DNA of 25,700 nucleotides from a virus (Duplodnaviria > Caudoviricetes), in IMG/VR virus record IMGVR_UViG_3300020043_001642, positions 1 through 25,700 of that record; one strand, written 5' to 3'. A model generated the notes under the pieces. It was given only the letters and a program-made list of their open reading frames with translations. It made no database searches and was not told where the DNA came from. Of this stretch, positions 18,221 to 25,078 are shown in pieces (positions within the stretch are counted from its first letter, which is position 1; every line of letters begins with the position of its first letter). A program made the position numbers and the translations under genes.

Positions 18221-18650
18221 TGTTCTTTTCCTTTATGTAAAAAGCAACGCCTTTGTTGTTAATTCGGTTTTGCACCCAAGCGTCAAGTCGAATGTCATAT
18301 TGGAAAAAACCAAACGGCTCATCCGTCAGTGGCTTGCGCTGTAATAATGAATGTTCGCCCCTTGGGTTCTGTTCCATAGCCCAATCAAGCCATTCCTTTG
18401 CATCCATGTCGTAGTAGCCGTTAGGCCCAACAGAGGACAACTCCTCGCCAAGTCTGATTGCGGCATCACGCCACGCCACAGGCTCATCCTTCACTTCTAG
18501 TGCGGCTTTAATGGCGGTGATGGCTTGGTCAGCAATGCGCCGCATCCTCTCCTCAAGACTTTCAATTGGCGGAGTTTCAATGTGATATTGAGTTCTGGAA
18601 ATCTTTTCCAACGCATCCAATGCAAGGCGTAATGCTTCGTCTTTAGTCAT
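18213..18650 (-). CDS. Hypothetical modular protein (MTKDEALRLALDAL...EPVAW...KEKNNE)
   Basis: ATG 18650 overlaps the upstream stop (ATGA). Confidence 0.75.
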   Translation of the reverse strand: MTKDEALRLALDALEKISRTQYHIETPPIESLEERMRRIADQAITAIKAALEVKDEPVAWRDAAIRLGEELSSVGPNGYYDMDAKEWLDWAMEQNPRGEHSLLQRKPLTDEPFGFFQYDIRLDAWVQNRINNKGVAFYIKEKNNE

Positions 18651-20492: not shown

Positions 20493-20674
20493 TCTGGCTC
20501 CCACTTAGGGCAGACATCCACCTCGGCAGCAAACTCGGCTGGCGGTGTCATGAAGAACTCGGTGCACAGGCCATCGTTGCCATACATCTCGCAGGTATGG
20601 CAGCACTTCGGTGGACCGGCCTTGATCCACTCGCGGTAGTCAACCAAAAATTGTGGCTCTGGTGGTCGGCTCAT
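20480..20674 (-). CDS. Small Cys-rich protein
   Basis: PPKCCHTC...GLC...VCPKW; AAGGTGAG upstream. Confidence 0.75.
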   Translation of the reverse strand: MSRPPEPQFLVDYREWIKAGPPKCCHTCEMYGNDGLCTEFFMTPPAEFAAEVDVCPKWEPECPF

Positions 20675-21078
20675 GATGACTCACCTTTTTTAATTTGCAA
20701 ATCAACCCAATGACGCATCCGCAACCATCGTTGATGGGGTGTTTCATCGTACCAAGCCGCCTCATCATTCATAAACACAATTTCTTGCGCCATAGCATTG
20801 GCAATACCAAACTGCTCTGCGACTGTGCGGCTGTCTTCAGGATCAATGGATTCAATGGCGATTCCGCGCTTTTGACCAACCACACCTAATGCGCAGAAAC
20901 TACCATGCTCTACCAAATTGTGAGCAATCAGTTCTTTAATTGGCATCGCGTCCATCGCATCACCAAGTTCAATCAAAAACTTTTGACCGCGCTTTCCGCG
21001 CATGGCTGACTCTACTGCACCACGCCAACGAATGAGTGCCCATCCATCGCAATCATCACTGTATCCACTGCGGCTCAT
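20671..21078 (-). CDS. Hypothetical phage protein (MSRSGYSDD...)
   Basis: ATG 21078 in an ATGA overlap; WRGAVESAMRGKRGQ, CALG and ETPHQRW motifs. Confidence 0.75.
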   Translation of the reverse strand: MSRSGYSDDCDGWALIRWRGAVESAMRGKRGQKFLIELGDAMDAMPIKELIAHNLVEHGSFCALGVVGQKRGIAIESIDPEDSRTVAEQFGIANAMAQEIVFMNDEAAWYDETPHQRWLRMRHWVDLQIKKGESS

Positions 21079-21227
21079 TTCAGACCCCTTTGCATGAGCT
21101 TCACCCAGCACCGAGCGCAATGCCACTTGGCACGCACCGTGACACCACCAAGCGGATCAGCCTCACGACTGCACACATCACAAACCTTGAGCTTGTGCAT
21201 TCGATTCATTTGTTCTTCAACTGTCAT
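21075..21227 (-). CDS. Small zinc-finger protein (50 aa), absent from the ORF track
   Basis: Hand translation MTVEEQMNRMHKLKVCDVCSREADPLGGVTVRAKWHCARCWVKLMQRGLK*; two CxxC; AGGAG RBS; ATGA overlaps. Confidence 0.75.
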   Translation of the reverse strand: MTVEEQMNRMHKLKVCDVCSREADPLGGVTVRAKWHCARCWVKLMQRGLK

Positions 21228-22813
21228 TCCCAGCTCCTTTTTATTACCCTAAAAAACTTTCCGTCCTTGCGATACTCGATCCACTCTGGTGGCGTGGCCT
21301 TGTTCATGTTCTGCACCATGTCCTCCAGCGTCTTCACATTCAGACCACCAGGCACAATGCTGGCGCTGTTGGCAATACTCAGCAGCTGGCTCATTGCACG
21401 CTGGCCTGCATAGCCTTCATGCATGATTGGCAAATACTCGGTGATCGGTGTGTCGCTCAGGCCACCGTAGTAAGTCACTGCCAGCATCTCGATGCCAGAG
21501 GCCTTGCTGATGTGCTTGCGCCATGTCCAGCTCGTCACTTCCAACTCTTGGCCATCCAGACCCATGATGTCGTCATTACGCAACACCATCGATTTTTTTA
21601 CTGGCTCAGGAAACTGCTCACCGCATGAAGGGCAAAGCATCACCGAGATGTGCACTAGCTCACCGCAGTGATCACACACCTTGACTGGTGCCTCGCCATT
21701 GCCATCGCCACCCTTCTTGGGTGGCTGCACATTGGTGATCGGACCATGCGACTCGACAACACCAGCGAAGTCGAGCACCAGGCAGTGATCGGTGTGCGAC
21801 TTCACGCGCATGCCACGGCCTGCCATCTGCACATAAAGGCTGGCGCTCATGGTCGGACGCAGCATCACAACCAGATCGATGTCTGGATAGTCAAAGCCAG
21901 TGGTCAGCACATTCGCATTGGTGAGCGCACGCACACGGCCTGCCTTGAAATCGGCCAGCATGCGCTCGCGCTCTTTTTTTGGTGTCTCTCCAGTCACACA
22001 CTCAGCGGTCACACCACGCTGGCGCAGGACTTCGGCCACGTGCTCCGCATGCTTCACGCCAGCACAGAAAAACAGCCATGCCTTGCGCTCACCGGCCAAG
22101 CCCATGACCTCATGCACCACAGCCTGATTCTTGTCGTCGGTGTCCACAGCAGCCTGCAACTCCGACTCAATGAACTCGCCTCCGCGCTTCTTCACGCCAG
22201 TCACATCCAGCTTGGCCTTGGTAACCTTGGAGCGCAGCGTGGCCAAATATCCCTTGAACACCAGCTCCTCGATGCTGACAGGTGTGAGCAGATCGTCAAA
22301 CAGCGCAGGCTTATCGGTGATTAGGCCATGCCCCAAGCGATAAGGCGTGGCGCTATACCCAATGATGCGGAGAGCAGGGTTTACTGCTATTAATTCACCG
22401 ATCAACTTGCGATAGCCACCTTCATCTTTGTGATTTACAAGATGGCATTCATCAATGATGATCAAGTCAATGTGCCCGATCAGCTTTGCTTTGTCGCGCA
22501 CAGATTGAATTCCAGCAAACGTGATTGGCTCACCAAGCTGGCGCTTGCCTACGCTTGCGCTGTAGATACCAAGTGGCGCACCAGGCCAATGCAATCGCAT
22601 TTTTTCAGCATTCTGCTCAATTAGTTCTTTGACATGAGTCAGCATCAAAATACGTGTTTCTGGCCATGTTTGAATTGCATCTTTGCAAAGTGCAGCAATA
22701 ACATGACTTTTTCCAGAGCCAGTTGGCATAACGACACATGGATGACCTTTATTGTTCGACATCCAGTCGTAAAGCAGTTCTATGCTTCTGGATTGATATT
22801 CACGCAGTTGCAT
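21224..22813 (-). CDS. Superfamily 2 DExH helicase (RadD/YejH-like) with C-terminal zinc ribbon
   Basis: LREYQ Q-motif, PTGSGKS, IIDECH, SATP, LTTGFDYP, QMAGRGMR; CDHC...CPSC. Confidence 0.93.
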   Translation of the reverse strand: MQLREYQSRSIELLYDWMSNNKGHPCVVMPTGSGKSHVIAALCKDAIQTWPETRILMLTHVKELIEQNAEKMRLHWPGAPLGIYSASVGKRQLGEPITFAGIQSVRDKAKLIGHIDLIIIDECHLVNHKDEGGYRKLIGELIAVNPALRIIGYSATPYRLGHGLITDKPALFDDLLTPVSIEELVFKGYLATLRSKVTKAKLDVTGVKKRGGEFIESELQAAVDTDDKNQAVVHEVMGLAGERKAWLFFCAGVKHAEHVAEVLRQRGVTAECVTGETPKKERERMLADFKAGRVRALTNANVLTTGFDYPDIDLVVMLRPTMSASLYVQMAGRGMRVKSHTDHCLVLDFAGVVESHGPITNVQPPKKGGDGNGEAPVKVCDHCGELVHISVMLCPSCGEQFPEPVKKSMVLRNDDIMGLDGQELEVTSWTWRKHISKASGIEMLAVTYYGGLSDTPITEYLPIMHEGYAGQRAMSQLLSIANSASIVPGGLNVKTLEDMVQNMNKATPPEWIEYRKDGKFFRVIKRSWE

Positions 22814-23388
22814 CAATAACTCTCCCTGCTTTTTATTCGACCAATGGTTGTTGCACTTACGCCAAACATGGCTGCAAGTTTTTGATGGGATATATCCATT
22901 TTTCTGATCTGGTCTGCTTGCTGATTGGTCAGCTTTGCCAGTCCTTTTTTATTTTCCCCACGGCCAGTAAATGACCGTTTTTTTTGCACCATATCGCGCA
23001 TGTTGTCGTGGTGCGTGCCTACAAAAAGATGATCTGGATTCACACAAAGAGGCGTGTCGCATTTATGGCAAACGTACATGCCTTTTGGTATCGCACCACG
23101 TACAAGTTCAAATGAAAATCTATGTGCACCGATTGACTTTCGATCATCAGTCCAATGGCGTGGATATGGCACACCTTTGCTGTTTGGCCTTGTCCCACCA
23201 GTCCACAGCCAGCAACCTGATTCATTGATTTCATATTTTTGGTGGAATCTCTCAATGGCATTGCCATCATCAACTTTTCGACTTCCGTGATCGTTGACAT
23301 CACCACGCTTTAGCAGTCTTCTGTAATGCTTGTCACAGTATCCTTTTGATACAGCATCACGCTCACATCCATCAAATGCACATTGCAT
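22813..23388 (-). CDS. HNH homing endonuclease (N-terminal Cys/His finger, HNH core, C-terminal HTH)
   Basis: GCWLW, AHRFSF, VCHKCDTPLCVNPDHL...HDNMRD; LAAMFGVSATTIGRI; AAGGAG RBS. Confidence 0.92.
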   Translation of the reverse strand: MQCAFDGCERDAVSKGYCDKHYRRLLKRGDVNDHGSRKVDDGNAIERFHQKYEINESGCWLWTGGTRPNSKGVPYPRHWTDDRKSIGAHRFSFELVRGAIPKGMYVCHKCDTPLCVNPDHLFVGTHHDNMRDMVQKKRSFTGRGENKKGLAKLTNQQADQIRKMDISHQKLAAMFGVSATTIGRIKSRESY

Positions 23389-23414
23389 GTCGTTCTCCTT
23401 GTGTCAGTGAGTCC

Positions 23415-23443
23415 ATTTTATAGGAATGACAGACACAATGCAA
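23415..23443 (-). promoter_or_regulatory. Sigma70-type promoter for the HNH gene
   Basis: TTGCAT (23443-23438), 17-bp spacer, TAAAAT (23420-23415), 26 nt upstream of the HNH ATG. Confidence 0.7.
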
Positions 23444-23491
23444 CCATCTGTAAAGCTCGTCGATGGTGCGCTGTTGGTAGTCTCTCAGCAT
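23444..23491 (-). pseudogene. Orphan 5' remnant of the helicase gene (MLRDYQQRTIDELYRW)
   Basis: 16 codons matching the helicase N-terminus MQLREYQSRSIELLYDW; the frame runs on into the HNH leader and stops at 23372. Confidence 0.8.
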
Positions 23492-24056
23492 GGAAGTTTT
23501 CCCCACTGGTCGGCCATCGCCTGCGCAATGCCTGCGAATGTCTCGCTGCGCAATTTCCAACGATCTGCGCTCGGTGGCATTTTGTGAATGCGTGGCTCTC
23601 TGCCATCGACAATGTTTGTTGGCCTGAGCAATGGCAAATTTTTAAGCCACAGACTGGTGGCCTTTGTCTCACCATGACCAAACTGCCAAGGCTGGATAAT
23701 TTGATCAGGCTTGCGCCACAAACTGGACATGATGCAAATCGGGTTCTCGATCGCAATGCGAGGAATGTTGCAATTTGCAAGCATCATGAAAAATGATGCG
23801 CTGGCCTGCTGGCGACCAATCAAACGCTTGCCTTCAAAATGACGAGCGCCACTGACAGACAGATCGGTGCATGGAGGATGAGCGATCATCAAATCCCAAG
23901 GGTAGTCCAACACATCACGAACATCACCTTGGTAATGTGGCCCAGGCACATCGGTGGGTAATAGATCACAGCTCATCGCTTCCCCCCCCCCCGAATGAAA
24001 GCATCGCGAACACGGCCAGAGTATTCGCAAGCCACAAGAATTCGCATCTTTCTCAT
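23485..24056 (-). CDS. DNA cytosine (C5)-methyltransferase-like gene, frameshifted at a G11 tract
   Basis: MRKMRILVACEYSGRVRDAFIR (motif I-like) from 24056 stops at 23973; the body EAMSCDLL...IAHPPCT...IAIENP...QPWQFGH is in another frame. One extra G restores a continuous gene. Confidence 0.8.
23982..23992 (-). repeat. G11 homopolymer (C11 on the + strand)
   Basis: Counted directly; the longest homopolymer I found in the window. Confidence 0.9.
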
Positions 24057-25078
24057 CCCACAATCCTTCCACCAAAACCCTTGCGCATCTCAGCGATGAA
24101 CGCATCACCACTTGCGCATGCAGCAGCATTGGCCAGCAACTCTTTGGAGCCGTAAACACCTTCCTGCTCAGGATCGCCATTGGCCAGATTCACGCCATTG
24201 ATCTCGTACACAGCAGTGAACTCGTCTGGCCCATCCTTGCGCTGCCAAGGCACCAGATCGGGATGCAGAACATGACCCTCACAGCCAGTACGCTGTGAAT
24301 CCAAAGGAATCTCAGCATCCCACTTGGCGCAGTGCCAAGTCGAGTCAGGCATCGCTGTAGCCAAAGCACAGGTGCGGCAGTTCACATGCTTGGTGGTTTT
24401 GGACTGGTGGCAGAACTCATGCGCATCGCAGAACTTGCACTGATACCAGCTCGCATCTGAGCTGATCGGCTCAGGCATGCGGTCAGTCAAAGCAATGCGC
24501 TGGCCGCGAGCAATGGCCTTGCCTGCCACATCCTTGTCGAACTTCACGCGCTCGGTGTGGATGCGGTCATCATCCTTGCAGACGGTCAAGTACAGCGCAC
24601 GATCAATGCCAGTGCCAGCCATGTAGACCTGCATCTGCACAAAGTGCTCAGGCTTGGACTTCTCCACGCCATTCTTCTCCAGATCGTCAAATGCTTTTTT
24701 GGATGCAGTCTTGAACTCGGCAATGTGCTTGGACTTGGGCGCTTCTGGCACACCCTTGTCAATGATCGCATCGATGCTGCCAGACACATGGCTGCCAAAG
24801 TCCACACGGTGCTGGGCAGATACCTTGCGCACATCGATGCCAATGGCACGCAGGTCGCTGATGATGTTGGCCTCCTCTTGATGGCCACGCCTGAACAGGC
24901 GCAGGATTCGACCAGGGAAGGTCGGCTGCACAGCCCAGCGGAAAGACAGCCACAGCCACCGATCACACACATGGCCAAGCGTACTGGCTCCAAGGTGTGG
25001 GCGCGGCACCTCAGCAATGGCCTCATGGTGCTTGTCAACCAATGACTGGATGCTATTATCTGGCTCAGGGATTTTCAT
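24053..25078 (-). CDS. Cas4-like PD-(D/E)XK exonuclease (phage recombination nuclease)
   Basis: HLGAS..GHVCDR, GH..E, SGSID, AEFKT, QMQVYM, C-terminal CKFC...C; AAGGAG RBS before ATG 25078. Confidence 0.85.
   Translation of the reverse strand: MKIPEPDNSIQSLVDKHHEAIAEVPRPHLGASTLGHVCDRWLWLSFRWAVQPTFPGRILRLFRRGHQEEANIISDLRAIGIDVRKVSAQHRVDFGSHVSGSIDAIIDKGVPEAPKSKHIAEFKTASKKAFDDLEKNGVEKSKPEHFVQMQVYMAGTGIDRALYLTVCKDDDRIHTERVKFDKDVAGKAIARGQRIALTDRMPEPISSDASWYQCKFCDAHEFCHQSKTTKHVNCRTCALATAMPDSTWHCAKWDAEIPLDSQRTGCEGHVLHPDLVPWQRKDGPDEFTAVYEINGVNLANGDPEQEGVYGSKELLANAAACASGDAFIAEMRKGFGGRIVG

Follow-up and report, generated by a model that had tools for sequence, protein, structure and literature searches.

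Homing elements that replace the end of a gene have been placed in a third category beside introns and inteins, and were called 'considerably more rare' than either in the pertinent part of a recent preprint (Osborne et al. 2026, bioRxiv 10.64898/2026.08.13.744650). In the WHO elements of Torulaspora and Lachancea, FBA1 has its end replaced by an endonuclease gene that comes with a resistant 3′ half, and recombination takes place in the fragment left stranded, according to the relevant sections of Coughlan et al. (2020, PMC7282813). Here we describe a comparable arrangement in a 25,700-nt stretch of phage DNA (Duplodnaviria; Caudoviricetes; positions 1 to 25,700 of IMG/VR record IMGVR_UViG_3300020043_001642), which as a whole is called the window. 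On its minus strand, a free-standing HNH endonuclease gene lies in the 5′ end of a superfamily 2 (SF2) helicase gene and is preceded by a stub, the first helicase codons of the recipient type. We consider it probable that the HNH leader, the HNH gene and helicase codons 1-154 make up a homing unit that is inserted at helicase codon 16 and whose predicted cut in uninvaded alleles falls in or beside the GLTAT position (GYSAT in the window), which we take to be motif III of the helicase.

By analogy, the unit works like a WHO element in mirror image without being a member of that group. Both combine an endonuclease with an allelic piece of the host gene that resists cleavage (presumably so here), leave a chimeric gene with discordant 5′ and 3′ trees (PMC7282813; bioRxiv 10.64898/2026.08.13.744650), use a leftover fragment as recombination arm (putatively so here), involve no splicing and show several endonucleases converging on one gene. 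As far as the yeast elements are covered in these sources, the differences are equally clear. The WHO endonucleases are LAGLIDADG/intein-zinc-finger proteins related to HO and replace the 3′ half of FBA1, whereas the window unit is of phage origin, carries an HNH_3 enzyme and replaces the 5′ 154 codons of a helicase. Its stub of 16 codons ends ~410 bp short of the predicted target, and codons 17-154 were overwritten rather than displaced. Instead of tandem clusters from successive homing, at most one stub was found within 1.5 kb upstream of the helicase at the loci of our census, and the other nucleases at the phage slot belong to unrelated families.

Partial likenesses were also found in phages and organelles. 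The free-standing endonucleases of T4 (SegF/gene 56, SegG/gene 32, MobE/nrdB) lie beside a conserved gene, cleave hundreds of bp away from where they are inserted (as predicted here), co-convert flanking DNA and have translational overlaps, but they are intergenic or split genes into two working halves, whereas the window insertion lies within the 5′ end of the gene and the stub is discarded; the operator of I-TevI resembles its homing site, as the putative operator does the predicted one here, but the operator in that account belongs to intron-encoded enzymes and is a single site, and the window's would be a dyad at a free-standing HNH gene (relevant sections of Edgell et al. 2010, PMC2988022). 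In fungal mitochondrial mORFs (Allomyces atp6; Glomus atp6, atp9, cox2, nad3), an endonuclease likewise brings a foreign gene end and strands the native one, but these are C-terminal, LAGLIDADG or GIY-YIG, and organellar (PMC3630166, in the parts on these genes). MobA in the phage topoisomerase gene 39/60 is an HNH cassette in an essential phage gene with a diverged homologous replacement (homR) around the nick site; unlike the window unit, it divides the gene into two parts, both of them expressed, and depends on ribosomal bypassing, and homR spans ~16 codons rather than 154 (pertinent parts of bioRxiv 10.1101/2022.08.31.505936). Integrases, too, can carry replacement sequences, in attP (PMC10111431, in part). 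The relevant parts of Barth et al. (PMC10448857) treat free-standing, intronic and intein cases and hold no stub-and-replacement case, and no description of a 5′-end replacement with a stub in phages was found in a literature search that covered the subscription literature thinly and had supplements outside its scope.

The window helicase is, by composition, divergence and phylogeny alike, a chimera, as a preliminary description of the window had proposed; its sequence is foreign through codon 154 and native thereafter. That description had a complete helicase restarting after the HNH gene with a diverged N-terminus, and such a gene was seen to start at 22813 with MQLREYQSRSIELLYDW, in a TGATG overlap with the HNH stop. 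Its first ~150 codons had been judged AT-rich like the HNH gene; the GC content at third codon positions (GC3) in fact changes from 0.38 to 0.68 at about codon 146 (range 142-158; 0 of 1000 shuffles reached this), against 0.36 in the HNH gene, and is 0.73 and 0.68 over the corresponding parts of a nuclease-free helicase (L005; loci are designated by L and a number). DNA identity to the 16 closest nuclease-free loci (L005-L020), compared in 20-codon bins, was 52-83% over codons 2-161 and 77-100% thereafter. The last diagnostic differences from nuclease-free alleles were at codons 153-154 (GYSAT versus GLTAT), with agreement from codon 155. Compared with L005, nonsynonymous divergence (dN) was 0.21, with synonymous divergence (dS) saturated, before the junction, and dN was 0.006 after it.

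Trees were built from 35 of 104 aligned helicase genes, chosen by hand to span the groups. Over codons 18-152, the 16 nuclease-free rows formed one clade and the window grouped with other HNH carriers; over codons 345-480, the window fell among the nuclease-free loci and the carriers were scattered (L081 with L049, L083 with L076, L088 with L069). Approximately unbiased (AU) tests rejected the crossed groupings both ways (p 9e-7; p 4e-84 for the window plus L081-L085). Both the GC3 step and the conflicting trees had been predicted in the preliminary description. The limit of 22330 given there was corrected: the foreign tract ends at 22352/22351, between codons 154 and 155.

At the other end, the stub encodes MLRDYQQRTIDELYRW, and its ATG at 23491 overlaps the stop of the methyltransferase-like gene (ATGCTGA; stop 23487-23485). 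These coordinates agree with the preliminary description, which had recognised a 16-codon helicase N-terminus coupled to that stop and followed by the HNH leader. The stub is not a chance resemblance: over 50 bp it aligns at 84-90% with the 5′ ends of the helicase genes at three nuclease-free loci, and of 72 nuclease-free helicases, all have a stub-type N-terminus and 14 have its exact peptide there. A nuclease-free relative in which the methyltransferase gene runs straight into a stub-type helicase, the uninterrupted order that had been expected, was found in L051. Left junctions occurred in at least three registers (most loci; L104-L106 with L312; L314), each against the TT(G) of the putative -35 box, which suggests repeated joining at microhomologies.

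To follow the unit in other phages, loci were collected by four query-driven searches, and the counts given here apply among the matches listed. The HNH at 70% identity or more was found at 46 distinct loci in viral and metagenome searches, and 72 of the 80 loci from the helicase search were without it. The helicase directly followed the HNH gene in 43 of the 46, the other three contigs ending within 169 bp. A full stub was present in 31, a stub cut by the contig end in two, no stub in 11 and no upstream DNA in two. The 31 stub-bearing loci carried 25 distinct, unrelated upstream flanks, and 12 matched a nuclease-free locus at 51-60 of 60 nt. L081 was 90-100% identical to the window from the stub to about codon 160, with an unrelated left flank and a right flank at 74-92%; outside the unit, its exonuclease and VRR-NUC proteins were 82% and 78% identical to those of the window. 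As these alignments have it, leader, HNH gene and helicase codons 1-154 (1.1 kb) are a unit found in many unrelated backgrounds, and the earlier proposal of a mobile unit made of promoter, HNH gene and helicase 5′ end gains support from its recurrence behind 25 different flanks. Replacement alleles of two types accompany this HNH: type A extends to codon 154, and type B to about codon 340. Close relatives differ in whether the window HNH is present at this one site, and its flanking DNA is co-converted; one sequencing run (X6) contained the cassette together with a contig that departs from the window sequence at 22352 into an L-T allele.

The enzyme itself is, judged from its alignments, intact and under purifying selection. 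H108, C110, D111, C115, H120 and N129 were invariant in 48 sequences, the reading frame was open in all 41 full-length copies, and dN/dS was 0-0.11 in the 26 of 40 comparisons that were unsaturated.

In order to relate the nuclease to the helicase allele, a census was made of 198 distinct helicase loci; the open reading frames (ORFs) immediately preceding the helicase were sorted into clusters, of which a single representative each was scanned in Pfam. Two clusters were called HNH-like by eye with no Pfam match, and four loci were reassigned by hand. A nuclease-type gene lay directly upstream of 1 of 111 helicases reading LTAT at motif III versus 62 of 74 reading xSAS, YSAT or YTAS; it was found at none of 10 LTAS/LSAT/CTAT loci, and three further loci had too-short flanks. 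A stub preceded none of the 123 LTAT/LTAS/LSAT/CTAT helicases and 30 of the 75 others. The HNH was upstream in 17 of the 18 YSAT loci, the remaining one, L002, being cut off and retaining the last HNH codons. By this census, nuclease presence tracks the motif III allele, and the three different allele types beside the HNH all alter motif III.

Other nucleases were found in the same position. A second HNH (224 aa), an Endonuclease_7 protein and a NUMOD-bearing GIY-YIG-like protein were also accompanied by stubs, and the codon at which the stub breaks off differed from one to the next. In a second lineage (L376-L400; YqaJ-like exonuclease, 592-aa helicase of 29% identity), a stub, a nuclease of one of three types and a replacement to about codon 500 were seen, and the nuclease-free members have a helicase that starts with the stub peptide. 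Codon 154 read AGY in 28 of 29 HNH loci and in none of 113 nuclease-free ones, but this was no longer taken as a rule specific to the HNH once nuclease-free type B alleles with AGY had been found. Some loci depart from the common layouts. L020 is nuclease-free and has a local diverged patch across motif III (LTAS, an allele of seven loci in all) at helicase codons ~142-181, a candidate resistance patch of incomplete homing; L271 has at ~2420-2500 a stub and then a type B helicase with no nuclease between them, a candidate cassette that lost its endonuclease. In L215-L268, a type B allele with unusual Walker motifs (MPGGSGKS, DEVH) and ~340 codons replaced is common to several nuclease families.

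A candidate target was noticed by eye at the mapped junction, where the motif III DNA of uninvaded alleles, GGC CTG ACT GCC AC, resembles a half-site of the inverted repeat in the HNH leader. A matrix was made from the half-sites of 23 distinct leaders, with no target data, and ~11,000 positions were ranked per locus. In 113 LTAT loci, motif III was ranked at a median of 2 (first in 37, within the top 10 in 110); in HNH carriers the medians were 110 (LSAS) and 364 (YSAT). In 14 close relatives, 1 of 300 column-shuffled matrices performed equally well at a distance of up to 15 bp from the junction. A loosened pattern matched all 113 LTAT sites, none of 41 readable HNH-linked alleles and three other places in 1.9 million positions, and the half-site conservation omits positions that are wobble positions in the G-L-T-A-T codons. 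Given homing, motif III of the uninvaded helicase alleles is thus a rather likely target of the HNH.

As for the repeat itself, control of HNH translation by an RNA hairpin in the manner of T4 was rejected, the leader folding no better than shuffles (z score -1.07), and no compensatory changes were seen by eye in an alignment of 17 rows. For these two reasons a DNA site was preferred. As two target-like half-sites lie to either side of the putative -10 box, the HNH would probably repress transcription from its own promoter through this repeat, as I-TevI does. A promoter-overlapping site similar to the predicted homing site was recovered by matrix rank in the window lineage and not in the second lineage.

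Several observations weigh against a homing unit directed at motif III. The query-driven loci are not a random sample, and the LTAT loci are mutually related, so that the 113 are not independent tests. The simple target pattern was loosened after the target had been seen; the loosened form also matches the window at 18427 (-), either a possible off-target or a sign that cleavage needs more bases, and the target departs from the half-site at 1-3 positions invariant in the leaders. A forward test in the second lineage failed, since nuclease-free relatives of L111 read GLSATP and GLTATP was predicted. The matrix did not tell these alleles apart from the HNH-linked one, which scored higher on the predicted strand (9.4-12.6 versus 5.1-9.6); on the reverse strand, 4 of 7 had a match at that place, which was found post hoc. 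The putative leader promoter was not listed by a consensus promoter scan and its -35 box matches just 3 of 6 positions, and RNA runs contained at most 12% of the sampled window words. Replacements of type B and of the second lineage end away from motif III, and the 11 stub-less HNH carriers noted above belong here as well. The link between allele and nuclease also has exceptions: L181 has an HNH-like ORF before an LTAT helicase, and L143 lacks the HNH and combines LTAT with an N-terminus that is A-like. In Roseobacter phage CRP-901, an unrelated HNH precedes the LTAT helicase, with no stub in the 360 bp inspected. HNH-less helicases of the MQLREYQ type with no remnant had been named beforehand as an observation that would speak against the cassette. 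The YSAT allele of the window was found at no nuclease-free locus, but type B alleles had no upstream nuclease in 12 of the 74 non-LTAT-type loci, some of them starting with MQLREYQ, and so, for type B, answer in part to that description.

These points bear in the first place on the position of the cut. A homing cassette could have its target elsewhere in codons 17-154 or across the codon-16 insertion, with the codon-155 junction merely the first long conserved stretch and the leader repeat a site for a phage or host regulator. Such an arrangement would be consistent with the failed prediction in the second lineage and with the mismatches at leader-invariant positions, and codons 155 onward are indeed the first long block of identity, the longest identical run in 14 loci being 15-21 bp in codons 2-154 and 32-83 bp in codons 155-307. 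We nevertheless regard it as unlikely, for the matrix rank was obtained at an independently mapped junction, the half-site conservation skips the G-L-T-A-T wobble positions, and motif III is altered in every allele type beside the HNH.

A reading with no drive at all would treat the slot between exonuclease and helicase as a recombination hotspot, in which the HNH gene and a diverged 5′ end hitchhike by homologous exchange at the stub and motif III, and accessory genes are swapped with the stub as right arm. Nuclease-free phages likewise show a hypervariable slot (47 clusters of upstream ORFs), and type B alleles with no nuclease would fit; in L104/L106, L093/L094 and L090/L299, near-identical HNH genes and identical stubs stand between unrelated flanks, which does not show the side that moved. 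However, purifying selection on the HNH, the near-exclusion of LTAT beside several unrelated nuclease families (1 of 111) and the target-like leader repeat would all be left unexplained, and we hold this reading to be quite improbable.

The HNH gene is not within an intron or intein, having its own ORF, a 55-bp leader and a complete helicase downstream. Its AlphaFold2 model (predicted local distance difference test, pLDDT, 86) had I-HmuI (PDB 1U3E) as best Foldseek match, followed by I-PpoI; both share the HNH_3 domain with a C-terminal helix-turn-helix, and both matches are weak (E 6e-3 and 6e-2; 14-18% identity). A PDB sequence search with the HNH protein gave no match. I-HmuI is intron-encoded, unlike the free-standing window HNH, and I-PpoI presumably is as well. 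A group I intron-encoded HNH of the I-HmuI type was rejected for the window, since no self-splicing intron surrounds the gene and its flanks are the leader and a 1-nt overlap with the helicase start; an Rfam scan gave no match near the locus and one weak unrelated match only. A stub-HNH fusion was rejected as well, the two being out of frame in the window and the frame variable among relatives. In L231 and L234, a stub is in frame with the different 224-aa HNH, which could thus use the helicase's own start codon. A spliced or recoded insert (group I intron or translational bypass) joining the stub as a functional exon to the helicase is hardly credible: stubs are open in 30 of 31 loci, with the window's continuing through the leader to a stop at 23372, and T4 gene 60 bypassing with mobA gives a precedent (bioRxiv 2022.08.31.505936, in part), but the short leader, the absence of an Rfam match near the locus, a complete downstream helicase with its own ATG and ribosome-binding site, the variable stub-leader frame and the carriers with no stub all stand against it.

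The homing unit directed at motif III could spread as follows. In a mixed infection, the HNH would bind GGN YTN ACN GCN AC, the codons of G-L-T-A-T, and nick or cut nearby, at ~codon 153. Pairing of the right broken end with the donor DNA would be immediate and start at codon 155; the left end would meet little homology in the diverged codons 17-154 and would be resected back to the 48-bp stub or a shared upstream gene, of which the stub is the favoured place because identical runs in codons 2-154 are so short and the upstream gene varies. Repair would then copy the leader, the HNH gene and the resistant allele and restore the stub. This placing of the cut and of the two pairings follows established homing biology, in which the cut is made at a distance from the point of insertion and resection has to proceed to homology outside the gene (Edgell et al. 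2010, PMC2988022, in the sections concerned). Since the insertion site and the likely cut are ~410 bp apart, the stub is probably a left homology arm and the enzyme probably does not cut there; such an arm would let the unit enter behind whichever accessory gene precedes the helicase. The helicase, which is assumed to be essential, would owe its translation to a ribosome-binding site that lies within the HNH gene, and we infer a dependence on the HNH 3′ end that would favour HNH retention. Crossovers within the diverged tract would yield nuclease-free resistant alleles, and L020 and the nuclease-free type B loci may be such products.

Gene-end replacement has precedents; what renders this locus directly testable is that several nuclease families converge on it and that a target can be derived from its putative operator. 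The mirror-image layout spreads over many phage backgrounds and is reused by several nuclease families, and a helicase phylogeny for this phage group is a chimera with fixed breakpoints. A target derived from an operator amounts to a base-level prediction from sequence alone, and if operators mark targets, promoter palindromes could serve to predict the specificity of free-standing HNH nucleases that have yet to be characterised. Phages may commonly use this strategy without its being noticed, since a stub of 16 codons will probably escape annotation. In a broader and more tentative picture, which we regard as possible rather than probable, the unit would correspond in phages to the WHO elements, with the 5′ end as the part replaced, and its target could be read from the palindromic operator of its promoter; one helicase would be contested by at least four unrelated nuclease families (two HNH types, Endo VII-like, GIY-YIG-like), which would each dock via a 12-18-codon stub and would keep anciently diverged resistant alleles circulating in wild phage populations.

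Table 1. Features of the helicase locus in the window, in the order of minus-strand transcription.
Feature	Position	Strand	Evidence and remarks
Cas4-domain exonuclease	24053..25078	-	phrog_1990 E 1.5e-90; precedes helicase in most relatives; conserved left anchor of variable slot
DNA methyltransferase-like accessory gene	23485..24056	-	phrog_757 E 2e-59; frames; frameshifted at 11-G run 23992-23982
Stub, first 16 codons of recipient-type helicase	23444..23491	-	sequence comparison; probable left homology arm
Left junction, TGGTT common to helicase codons W-F and leader start	23442..23446	-	sequence comparison
Putative sigma-70 promoter, TTGCAT-N17-TAAAAT	23415..23443	-	TT and TAxxAT 96-100% conserved in 27 distinct leaders
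Inverted repeat, two 15-bp half-sites (GGA nTn ACn GAC ACA) around -10 box	23400..23437	-	leader alignments; putative operator resembling predicted target
Shine-Dalgarno-like AAGGAG of HNH gene	23395..23400	-	sequence; conserved in leader alignment
Free-standing HNH endonuclease, 191 aa (N-terminal Cys/His motif, HNH core, C-terminal helix-turn-helix)	22813..23388	-	Pfam HNH_3 E 3e-11; helix-turn-helix matches in relative L109
Shine-Dalgarno-like GGGAGAG for helicase, within last HNH codons; TGATG stop-start overlap	22820..22826	-	sequence; Shine-Dalgarno-like sequence in 39/46 loci
Replacement helicase codons 1-154, type A allele, carried with HNH	22352..22813	-	identity, junction, trees, GC3/dN
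Helicase motif III region, resident GYSAT (GLTAT in uninvaded alleles); right junction and predicted target position	22346..22360	-	codon-level comparison
Recipient-derived helicase codons 155-529 (SF2, ResIII/Helicase_C, Zn ribbon)	21224..22351	-	Pfam, identity, trees

The plus strand of the window carries capsid-like and other structural-looking ORFs, as judged by eye, and the minus strand a replication module in the order DUF669, Cas4-domain exonuclease, methyltransferase-like gene, HNH, SF2 helicase and VRR-NUC. The nearest records in an annotated phage collection have helicases 65-75% identical to that of the window, and the sequencing runs best matching the window are aquatic metagenomes according to their records. 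A search for the HNH in genome contigs, as prophage or in a host, gave just three distant matches (37-51% identity).

The methyltransferase-like gene is, by alignment, recipient background outside the cassette, its DNA being 94.7% identical to that of nuclease-free L051 over 23451-23977. Its coupling to the stub had been described correctly, with the correction that the gene itself is frameshifted at the 11-G run; L004 also has 11 G there, and L053, L066 and L092 are in frame. The frameshift could be phase variation, decay once the helicase was no longer coupled to the methyltransferase, or a shared assembly error. Further along the module, an ORF at 20671-21078 (-) between helicase and VRR-NUC (phrog_25637, GC3 0.41) was not found in any relative fetched and marks a second variable slot, and the close relative L004 has a second, distant HNH (41%) downstream of VRR-NUC (L004:5844-6215, -). 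In L092, ~820 bp (L092:1996-2818) interrupt the exonuclease gene at residue 231, possibly as an intron or other insertion. The exonuclease-helicase slot was also found to hold many DNA-modification genes, among them C5 and N6/N4 methylases, Dam, Mom, a TET-associated glycosyltransferase and a PAPS-reductase-like protein.

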